Assembly: GCA_026770705.1 (NCBI GenBank)
Contig: JANJGN010000026.1
Coordinates: 35,340,001 to 35,404,000 of the forward strand
Origin: Isurus oxyrinchus
Taxonomy: Eukaryota
Length of the DNA stretch: 64,000 nucleotides
Direction: 5' to 3'
In this document: in pieces, positions 2,103 to 6,830 of the stretch
Layout of the letters: each line of letters starts with the position of its first letter
How positions within the stretch are numbered: position 1 is the first letter of the stretch
Translations under genes and position numbers: made by a program
The notes under the pieces: model-generated
Told to the model about the DNA's origin: nothing
The model's database searches: none
The model's input: only the letters and a program-made list of their open reading frames with translations

Positions 2103-2570
2103 ATGGGAATCCTCCATGTTTTCACCCTGTGTGTCTATTTACCCCGTGAGTACCGATCAAACAAACCGACATTGTGTGGGTTTAATATAAAGCTGCCCGA
2201 GTCCATTCCATTTACAGACACTGTCCGGAGTTTTAACCCCGTTCTGTGGTTCGGCTCTGATAGTCCATTAAACTCTAATTTCCAGGCTCTTTCAGTCAGT
2301 CAGTGACACAGACCCCGGCAGCGGTGACCAGGAAGGAGTGTCAGTCTCTCACCATCACCTGTGTTTTCTCCGCTGCTTCGTGGCATTATTTCCAAACGGG
2401 ACATTTCTTCAAACAAACACAGACTGGGACTGAGCGGGAGCGGATCTCCAGCTGGGGGAGATTTGTTGTTTCGGTGAATAAAGCACGAAAGACATTTTCG
2501 CTGGAAATTCAGGATGTGAGAGTTGAGGACACCGCCACCTATTACTGTAAAGCTCAGTACCAGCACGACA
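2103..2570 (+). CDS. NAR-TCR V gene segment (IgNAR-like N-terminal V domain); leader exon 2103-2145, V exon 2286-2570
   Basis: Leader MGILHVFTLCVYLP|gtgagt, acceptor ttccag ending 2285. V exon SQSVTQTPAAVTRKECQSLTITC...ERERISSWGRFVVSVNKARKTFSLEIQDVRVEDTATYYCKAQ. The CDR2/C'-C'' region is deleted as in IgNAR V, the end is YYCKA, and there is an extra Cys at 2339-2341. An RSS follows. Confidence 0.9.
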
Positions 2571-2608
2571 CACAGTGATGGGCCTCGGCTGCCCGCGATA
2601 CAAAAACT
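2571..2608 (+). other. Recombination signal sequence of the NAR-TCR V (22-nt spacer)
   Basis: cacagtg (2571-2577) + 22 nt + acaaaaact (2600-2608). Confidence 0.92.
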
Positions 2609-2927: not shown

Positions 2928-3001
2928 GGATTTAATACTGACTTTGTAACACTGTGTGGATGGATGGGGGAGTCACAATGGGAGAGACCTGAGCAAATAC
3001 A
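2928..3001 (+). other. NAR-TCR D segment (core 2957-2973, tggatggatgggggagt) flanked by 12-type RSSs
   Basis: 5' heptamer cactgtg (2950-2956) with a weak nonamer 12-13 nt upstream. 3' heptamer cacaatg (2974-2980) + 12 nt + gcaaataca (2993-3001). The G-rich core is open in all three frames (WMDGG, GWMGE, DGWGS) and lies between V and J. Confidence 0.8.
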
Positions 3002-3308: not shown

Positions 3309-3400
3309 GGTTGTTGTACCTGGGAGACTGAGAGCGGTGTTACTGTGGTGGGTTACTGATTATGCGGATGGATCCGGGACAGTGGTGACTGTCACAGCCG
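3309..3400 (+). other. NAR-TCR J segment (3348-3400) with 23-RSS (3309-3347)
   Basis: ggttgttgt + 23 nt + tactgtg, then WVTDYADGSGTVVTVTA and a phase-1 donor G|gtaagt at 3401. Confidence 0.9.
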
Positions 3401-4850: not shown

Positions 4851-6316
4851 GATTGGATTCTCTGCTTTGATTTCTTACACCCCTGAGAAAAGAAATCAGC
4901 AACAATCCACATCTCTCTGGGAAGATTGAACAGGCTGGGTCTTTTTTTTCTGAAAAACAGAACTACAAGGAGAATCCATAGAAATCTTTTCAATAATGAA
5001 CGGTTTTATGGTGGAGAAATTTTTCATTTGTGACTAAGTCCAAGGCAACATCCGTCAACATATAACAATCATTAACAGAACAAATAAAATATTTAAGACA
5101 AATGAATTGAAACAAAGGCAGGTTAGAATGTGGAACTTGCTGCCACAGGGAGAGGTTGGGGATAGTATTGATATATTTATTGGAACACTTGGAAATACAG
5201 GAGGGAGAACGGAACAGGCCAACACAGGGAGCTGGATGTAAATGGTCAATTAGATTTCTGGTGGGGTCCGGCTGGAATTGATTATATACACAGGCTGAAT
5301 GGCCCATTCCTCTTCTGCACTCTTCTTCCTCTATAATGTAAAACTGAGAGAAAACTCCACCCAGTGAACCGGGGAGAGAATCAGTCAATGGGAGGAAAGA
5401 ATGAAATTTTCAGAGAACTGGAAGAGGCAGTTCTCAGTGAGTAACAGTAAAACCACTGTGGAAACTGAACAGACAACTGCGAAACTTTGGGGCAAGTTCC
5501 CACGGTTGCAAAAAGTACAAACAGCACAAAATAAATGTCAAATAAAGGGAATGTGAAATTAAAGAAATAAAATGAAATTAATTGCACCTACTTGAAATTA
5601 AGCTGAACTGGAGAAAATTGGACCCTATTGATAGAACATAAAGGAATAGAGCAAAAGGCAGATAGAAATTTCTGAGCAGTTTTAAACAGCAGTGAATGAT
5701 TGACCTTTCACCACGAGAGATGCACACTCTCGGTTTGGCCCAATCGGTGCTGATGAACCCCATCCGTTTGTGTTGGATCTTGCTGTGCACAGCGTTTCCA
5801 CGCAGCTGTGTTCCTCTCCAACACACATGCTTTTTGGAAACTGGTTGCCTCGCTGAACATAAAATGCTCCCTCGTGTTGGCCTCTCACCAAGGAAAATAG
5901 AAACGGGAATGTAATATAATTCATAGAATTGTCCAGCACGAAAGGATGACATTTGGCCCATTGCTGACCCTTTAAAAGTGCAATCCAATTGTTCCCACTG
6001 CCCATGAATTTTCTCTATAGCTCTATATTTGTATTTACATTTCCAGCACAGATCATTAACCGTTTGAAAGCCACGACTGAATCTATCCCCAACACCAATT
6101 CAGACAGTGCTGTCCTGATCGGAAGAATTCGCGATGTAAAATAAATCATCACCTCATTCCCCACTTGGTCATATTTTTATAAGAGTGAACACGGTTCAAA
6201 CAGGCTTCCAGGAAATAAAATTACTGCAATAAGCAGAGCTATTCACGCGATTGAGAGATTCTCCTGGACAAACAGTGGTTGAACAAAAATATAGTGTTCA
6301 TTTGTTTATCCTATAG

Positions 6317-6621
6317 ATTCCAGTTCCATGATTTCCCGGATGTCGCCTCTACAAACGTCTGCTGCTAGTGACAGAGTTACTTTAATCTGTGGGTATTCAG
6401 GTATCTGTCAGTACACAGTACACTGGTATTGTCAGTCCCCAGGAGAGGCTCCGGAATATCTTCTTCAGAGATACACTTCAGGAGAAGAGAATGAAGAAAA
6501 CTTTGCAGGGAAAGAATTTCTGCTTCTATCGATTCTTCCGAGAAAATCAGCCGGTTAAAGATCTCCAAACTGCAACTGAGCGACTCCGCTGTTTATTACT
6601 GTGAACTGAGTCAGCGCACAG
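6317..6621 (+). pseudogene. Leaderless supporting TCR-delta V segment of the NAR-TCR cassette, with a 1-nt frameshift near 6510
   Basis: Acceptor ctatag ends 6316, in phase with the J donor. DSSSMISRMSPLQTSAASDRVTLICGYSGICQYTVHWY...PEYLLQR; after a -1 shift RISASIDSSEKISRLKISKLQLSDSAVYYCELSQ. CDR1 Cys at 6406-6408. No leader exon recognised upstream. Perfect 23-RSS at 6622-6660. Confidence 0.85.
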
Positions 6622-6830
6622 CACAGTGATACGGAGCACGGAGAGAACCGTACAAAAACCTGAACATGGTGCAGAGTGACACAGAAACCGGAGGGCGCTG
6701 TACGAAAACCTGAACATGGTGGGATTACAGAAACACAGTGATACAGAGCACGGAAAGAGTTGTACAAAAAACTGAACATGGTGGGATTACAGACACACAG
6801 TGATACAAGGCACGGAAAGAGTTCAAATAA
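6622..6830 (+). repeat. Tandem array of four 23-RSS-like units (50-62 bp period)
   Basis: Heptamer/nonamer pairs: cacagtg 6622/acaaaaacc 6652; cagagtg 6672/acgaaaacc 6702; cacagtg 6734/acaaaaaac 6764; cacagtg 6796/degenerate nonamer. Shared linker ctgaacatggtg. Confidence 0.88.

Follow-up and report, generated by a model that had tools for sequence, protein, structure and literature searches.

V segments are described with one recombination signal sequence (RSS) each, and a V segment that is followed by a row of such signals raises the question of what the additional ones do. Such a segment lies in the 64,000-nucleotide stretch analyzed here (the window, C26:35340001-35404000 in a genome of 4.98 Gb), behind what an earlier note had called a supporting V; the note had suggested that the extra RSSs might raise local RAG capture, act as decoys, or allow serial attempts at joining, with neutral slippage as the fallback. 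The answer reached in the present study is that the array is a 62-bp RSS minisatellite standing behind most supporting V-deltas, whose extra units probably reflect, for the most part, near-neutral repeat turnover.

The gene content of the window is that of a cartilaginous-fish TCR alpha/delta region. NAR-TCR cassettes of cartilaginous fish were reportedly described by Criscitiello in 2006. In the available parts of PMC1845163, PMC5931798, PMC12227049, and PMC3457774, a NAR-TCR cassette consists of a leader and a NAR-type V, D, and J, followed by a supporting V-delta with a Cys in CDR1 and its own 23-RSS, and two separate rearrangements take place; the features of the NAR-type V, as far as the accessible text of PMC1845163 goes, are a Cys in the a-b loop and a WYRK motif without Trp. 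The window shows the same arrangement (Table 1): a NAR-type V with its leader, carrying an extra Cys in the a-b loop and no Trp at the WYRK position, is followed by its own D and J with their RSSs, the D having poor nonamers on both sides, and then by a V with the CDR1 Cys. The V at 6318..6621, which has its splice acceptor at 6316-6317 and both halves of which match Pfam V-set with scores below the Pfam cut-off, is a presumably leaderless NAR-TCR supporting V-delta, and the cassette is shark-type. What differs is that the RSS of the supporting V is here a variable-number tandem repeat, which is absent from the available parts of the four accounts cited above, and that the window copy is a pseudogene. 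Spacers of NAR-TCR V RSSs are 22 nt throughout, in the window (2571) and in paralogs. Four other V segments on the minus strand of the window (20579, 21888, 46352, and 47670) share an RSS spacer of 24 nt with a common spacer motif and a perfect nonamer.

Table 1. Features of the NAR-TCR cassette and of the RSS array in the window
Feature	Position	Strand	Remarks
Leader exon, NAR-type V	2103..2145	+	ATG 2103, hydrophobic peptide, GT donor 2146
NAR-TCR V exon, open	2286..2570	+	Pfam V-set E 4.6e-10; translation
22-spacer RSS of NAR V	2571..2608	+	
NAR-TCR D segment	2957..2973	+	5' heptamer 2950-2956 (minus orientation), 3' 12-RSS from 2974
23-RSS of NAR-TCR J	3309..3347	-	
NAR-TCR J segment	3348..3400	+	splice donor 3401; in paralogs, RNA-like contigs show a J-to-V splice
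Supporting V-delta exon with CDR1 Cys, pseudogene	6318..6621	+	one base missing near 6506, TAA 6556-6558
Array unit 1	6622..6671	+	perfect 23-RSS and 11-bp linker (12 bp deleted beside heptamer 2)
Array unit 2, 62 bp	6672..6733	+	CAC broken (third base G), 23-nt spacer, one nonamer mismatch
Array unit 3, 62 bp	6734..6795	+	perfect heptamer, 23-nt spacer, one nonamer mismatch
Terminal half unit	6796..6821	+	heptamer and 19 nt of spacer, without nonamer

In the window, the array has three full RSS units with 23-nt spacers, followed by a half unit, and its four heptamers (6622, 6672, 6734, and 6796) lie where the earlier note had placed them. As the note had also stated, units 1 and 3 are well formed: the heptamer starts with CAC in units 1, 3, and 4 and not in unit 2, and a 23-nt spacer with a near-consensus nonamer is found in units 1 to 3 and not in unit 4. 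Judging from these motifs, two of the units are likely cleavable by RAG. Tandem Repeats Finder reported a period of 62 at 6699-6823, and a terminal half unit like that of the window also closes many of the paralogous arrays. In 200 mononucleotide shuffles, RSS-like matches occurred at 0.11 per window, and two of them within 200 bp in 0 of 200. An origin as a RAG transposition product, which according to the available part of PMC2193153 would be marked by an inward 12/23 RSS pair with a flanking 5-bp target duplication, was rejected, because all the array units are 23-type and point in the same direction, with no opposite-strand RSS nearby.

The claim of the earlier note that a TGA at 6627-6629 stands in frame with the V holds for the second half of the V, but not for the frame from the splice acceptor, which stops at the TAA at 6556-6558 after the loss of a base at about 6506. 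The same one-base deletion and the same array layout recur in four copies on other contigs that are 96-98% identical (L002-L005), so that neither is an error of the window contig. The supporting V of the window is a pseudogene, no join to it is productive, and the array has no productive role here; the further claim that only the first RSS gives a productive join therefore fails for this frameshifted copy, for which no RSS does, while its other half, that distal joins are non-productive, is valid for the family. The V frame of 39 of 39 supporting Vs meets a stop codon within heptamer 1, and a distal join consequently gives no protein; the same stop rules out a read-through of distal joints to a longer CDR3. 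A distal join would, on the other hand, leave RSS1 behind.

The array is also found in DNA from elsewhere, as a comparison of species proposed in the earlier note had called for. Array back-joints of about 60 and 124 bases were seen in short-read contigs of a second organism, which shares about 30% of words, in two studies, and a single contig from a third organism has a back-joint of 63 bases. The array persists in one further species at least. An assembly artefact might be suspected, since duplication at the locus is extensive, part of it is unplaced, and none of the short-read contigs listed spans the window copy, but the units differ from one another, the layout is repeated in four other contigs, and tandem units occur in short-read contigs of two species, which leaves this explanation practically negligible.

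Comparison of the 3' flanks of other cassettes, also proposed in the note, demonstrated that the array is not unique to the window copy, a uniqueness that formed part of the conditions under which the note would have abandoned its reading. On C26, 39 supporting Vs were found by a DNA search and a V-end pattern, 37 of them with a NAR V no more than 7 kb upstream, and nine further ones were found via array and J patterns, three truncated Vs being left out. Before units were counted, L069 (an off-locus chance match), one insertion row in L046, and the last rows of L066, L067, and L068 were dropped, and 33 terminal partial units were also left out. At least two complete units stand behind 39 of the 48 supporting Vs (34 of the 39 and 5 of the nine further ones), and these multi-unit arrays have two to ten. 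Among the first 39 Vs, five have one complete unit, ten have two, nine have three, four have four, and six have five, and the longer arrays are one each with six, seven, and ten units and two with eight. The repeat unit of this minisatellite is 62 bp, made up of heptamer, 23-nt spacer, nonamer, and 23-bp linker. A generic tandem-RSS pattern gave 86 matches in the whole genome, a lower bound as only exact matches count, and all carried the spacer and linker of NAR-TCR supporting Vs (control, 1+1), while 13 other candidate V ends in the window all lack a repeated RSS. The tandem RSS array is exclusive to the NAR-TCR supporting-V family.

The way in which the arrays differ is that of a variable-number tandem repeat. 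Copy number runs from 1 to 10 complete head-to-tail units among 39 related arrays, and near-identical Vs differ in unit number (L034 with 5 and L036 with 8; L060 with 5 and L041 with 8). Unit number is without relation to V integrity (p 0.41 for 4 frameshifted versus 17 other representatives, a small sample). Helical phasing, for which 62 bp would correspond to about six turns, was set aside because unit periods of 50, 57-63, and 67 occur among the arrays. Most array indels are 1-bp changes in runs of A or G or 2-bp slips in CA repeats, and higher-order duplications in L036, L062, and L087 resemble unequal exchange. Most probably, a short RSS duplication in the ancestral cassette, before its amplification, became a minisatellite, which would then have grown and shrunk by slippage and unequal exchange; unit 1 would do the work, while further units would be copied and then decay. 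The well-formed ones among the distal units may at times be cut by RAG, and the resulting joints would be non-productive, with RSS1 left for a second try as a by-product.

Some cassettes show further rearranged forms. In L075 and L077, the supporting V breaks off at about 85 nt and continues directly in the spacer of one of the array units, of which 3-6 are left. The array ends soon after a nonamer, or within a spacer in L066, in L032, L047, L059, L063, L066, L071 (first V), and L086 (first V), and the different flank common to these arrays is probably an inserted repeat that truncated them. Nine nearly identical cassettes (L039, L043-L045, L049, L056-L058, and L073), indicative of recent amplification, have an open supporting V and two units, and their NAR D region is apparently deleted.

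The restriction of the array to the one V family that needs a second rearrangement speaks for a functional explanation. One possibility is that the array is a selected device for RAG capture and retry, in which a distant 12-RSS D or J could be captured by each of several RSSs and a silent distal joint brings the V to the D-J, where RSS1 completes the reaction; such a device would raise the odds that both NAR-TCR rearrangements succeed. The layout of the locus agrees with this, because the cassettes, which occur in either orientation, cover about 17 Mb of C26, while a different contig carries the TCR J cluster with 12-RSS (C242 669-694 kb), and RSS strength governs long-range capture in mouse, according to the available part of a preprint (bioRxiv 10.64898/2026.10.10.757971). 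The persistence of the array in at least one further species is likewise in its favor, as is the fact that 43 of 98 distal units are well formed and look cleavable, with at least one good distal RSS kept in 24 of 39 arrays. Against it, 9 of the 48 supporting Vs, several with open frames, have one complete unit only, and arrays behind pseudogenes or without any V are equally long.

Selection on the array was examined through the conservation of its units. CAC and the A5-A7 core of the nonamer are the bases that RAG needs most. A perfect RSS is present in 23 of 26 unique first units versus 22 of 74 unique distal units (p 2e-7), and an intact nonamer alone in 23 of 26 versus 31 of 74; the first-unit heptamers were partly fixed by the search pattern, the nonamer had no part in finding the Vs, and all p values are soft because the units are not independent. 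Distal nonamers have accumulated substitutions at 0.069, versus 0.073 in the linker (p 0.86). Their A5-A7 positions have a change rate of 0.086, versus 0.013 in first units, and CAC of the distal heptamers changes at 0.063, versus 0.030 for the remaining heptamer, and is therefore no better kept. By these comparisons, only unit 1 is clearly under selection. An excess of conservation is nevertheless found in the distal heptamers as a whole, which lends some support to the capture and retry device: 23 changes were observed versus 43 expected, a separate comparison with the linker gives p 0.025, and their pairwise divergence is 0.04-0.05, whereas flanks and intron reach 0.14-0.17 and four-fold sites 0.137. 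The linker, at 0.11, lies slightly below the flanks (0.14-0.17). The idea that the array is twice as conserved as neutral DNA (intron, 0.142 from the majority) was discarded, pairwise divergence being 0.11-0.19 versus 0.14-0.17.

The same question was put to a simulation, a toy model in which units duplicate and are deleted with only unit 1 constrained. The observed ratio of motif to other changes, 0.77, is one that neutrality would give (5-95%, 0.61-1.38). Under 90% constraint, far lower values would be expected (0.03-0.23), and the half-constraint range just reaches the observed ratio at its upper end. The fraction of perfect distal units, 0.30, compares with 0.25-0.32 under simulated neutrality and 0.50-0.56 under half constraint, and neutral turnover also reproduces the observed copy numbers. 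For the ratio of heptamer to other changes, the observed 0.53 does not exceed the 5th percentile under three of the four neutral settings (0.56-0.74) and slightly exceeds it under the fourth (0.52). Within the model, a constraint of 90% is rejected, half constraint fits poorly, and a weak constraint on the heptamer is compatible. Distal RSS motifs thus decay at near-neutral rates across paralogs, and this favors slippage, the fallback reading of the earlier note, over the capture, decoy, and serial-retry functions that it had put first, while the mild excess of distal-heptamer conservation leaves room for weak selection. With distal nonamers, A5-A7, and CAC unprotected and strong constraint rejected by the simulation, a selected capture and retry device seems rather unlikely, though it is the alternative that we take most seriously. 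A more elaborate form, in which the array acts as a tunable multi-copy antenna for RAG that works as a two-step ratchet, with repeat number setting the usage of each cassette and selection at the level of the heptamer maintaining the array, is doubtful.

Whether array signals are cut at all is a separate matter, on which the germ line offers a record. At C26:29964813 (L071 6994-7007), a 23-RSS array and the 5' 12-RSS heptamer of a NAR-TCR D meet head to head in an exact fusion, the D, J, and supporting V being missing, and this is the sole exact match in the genome. A second copy on C242 (L086/L092) has one substitution in the fusion and lies in blocks about 88% alike, so that the event is old and inherited. 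A signal joint is recognized by the exact fusion of RSSs (PMC2193153, in its accessible part). As far as the sequence itself can tell, the fusion is an inherited precise signal joint, for which RAG would have cut an array RSS in the germ line; an array RSS was, it appears, a real RAG substrate, and the D of the cassette a competing and destructive partner. The 3' flank nearest to that of the signal-joint array is only 75% alike, and the cut may have fallen at any of the units. The two V-less arrays at the joints now hold 3 and 6 units, which indicates that turnover continues without productive use.

The signal joint bears on two further explanations. One is that the distal RSSs are decoys, which make productive use of the supporting V less frequent or take up pairings with nearby 12-RSS D segments that would be harmful. 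Distal joins are indeed non-productive, many partners of the 12-RSS type are near (the D of each cassette and the IgH-like Ds, C26 25-40 Mb), and the D-to-array signal joint indicates that such pairing has occurred. A distal RSS joined with the 5' signal of the cassette D would, however, from the anatomy of the cassette, delete the V just as RSS1 would and protect nothing, and the bases needed for cleavage are without constraint; a decoy is accordingly very improbable. Scattered between the NAR-TCR cassettes (C26 25.3-40.0 Mb) are about 27 IgH-like Ds whose 3' spacer measures 22 nt, and a search for TCR-delta Ds gave no match with a strict pattern and only IgH-like Ds with a looser one.

The other explanation is that RAG, acting in the germ line, seeds the array and turns it over, through blunt signal ends religated out of register and open-and-shut joints that trim the linker beside the heptamer. 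The array begins at a RAG cut site, the 12-bp deletion in the window has one end precisely at a heptamer, an array RSS took part in an exact germ-line signal joint, pre-joined NAR V-J cassettes are common, and a heptamer-dependent process could explain why only the heptamer is conserved. The prevailing indel types and the higher-order duplications described above speak against it, however, and the events at unit boundaries are small in number, each probably going back to one ancestral event, which makes RAG-driven turnover improbable, and slippage with unequal exchange is still the reading that we prefer. In BLAST layouts, the NAR V stands directly against J without RSSs in L034, L035, L036, L038, L054, L062, L067, L068, L078, and L082, and directly against D without RSSs in L037 and L061; these layouts are likely germ-line-joined NAR-TCR exons. 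Two NAR J segments precede a single supporting V at C26 29979512/29983361, 30055783/30060826, 31158721/31163741, 33153164/33157409, and others, and in L083 and L085 an unjoined and a pre-joined NAR module precede one supporting V.

Evidence of use came from reads, for which 5 of the 8 runs guessed to be RNA were examined and four were aligned to paralog L038; none of the runs listed as containing the sequence was registered as RNA. In the putative RNA runs on L038, each of three organisms gave one end resembling a coding joint at unit 1, the trimming being 0, 3, and 6 nt, and three putative RNA runs, for paralogs, contained J-to-V splice ends. Among the listed loose ends of RNA contigs, in which rare forms are dropped and transcripts of distal joints would carry a premature stop, none resembled a coding joint at a distal heptamer, which does not count against such joints; two loose ends inside the array (X17 at 1956 and X16 at 1912) were considered as distal joints and read instead as diverged germ-line units.

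Minisatellites, or VNTRs, are known for head-to-tail units, changes in copy number, higher-order duplications, and a degenerate edge unit. The array shares all of these, with units of 50-67 bp, but each repeat in it holds a whole RAG recognition signal, and its first unit is under purifying selection. A second RAG-mediated try after a failed join is known from VH replacement via a 3' cryptic RSS (PMC3526766) and from serial TCR-alpha rearrangement (PMC5931798), both according to the available portions; in the array, by contrast, the spare signal is a full RSS of the same V, the first join would be non-productive by design, and the retry is putative. For sharks, the accessible part of PMC2193153 describes inherited RAG joints in Ig-type clusters, where coding and hybrid joints are supported and germ-line signal joints postulated; the fusion described here is likewise an inherited joint with exact RSS fusion, but it is a precise signal joint in a TCR cassette and exists in two diverged copies. 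Our literature search found no description of RSS arrays behind V segments, although figures or supplements of the primary nurse shark genomic-clone papers may already show one, and a family-exclusive RSS minisatellite in NAR-TCR cassettes is apparently undescribed.

A V family with a variable tandem RSS is unusual even if the repeat is neutral. For annotation, gene finders driven by RSSs would call false segments at such arrays. The inherited signal joint would document, directly in the sequence, that RAG has cut a TCR cassette in the germ line and that D and supporting V have paired in a self-deleting way. The arrays also form a natural dose series, with one to ten RSSs on near-identical Vs, in which it may be asked whether RSS number changes long-range RAG capture, and the series bears as well on how NAR-TCR achieves two rearrangements in one cassette.
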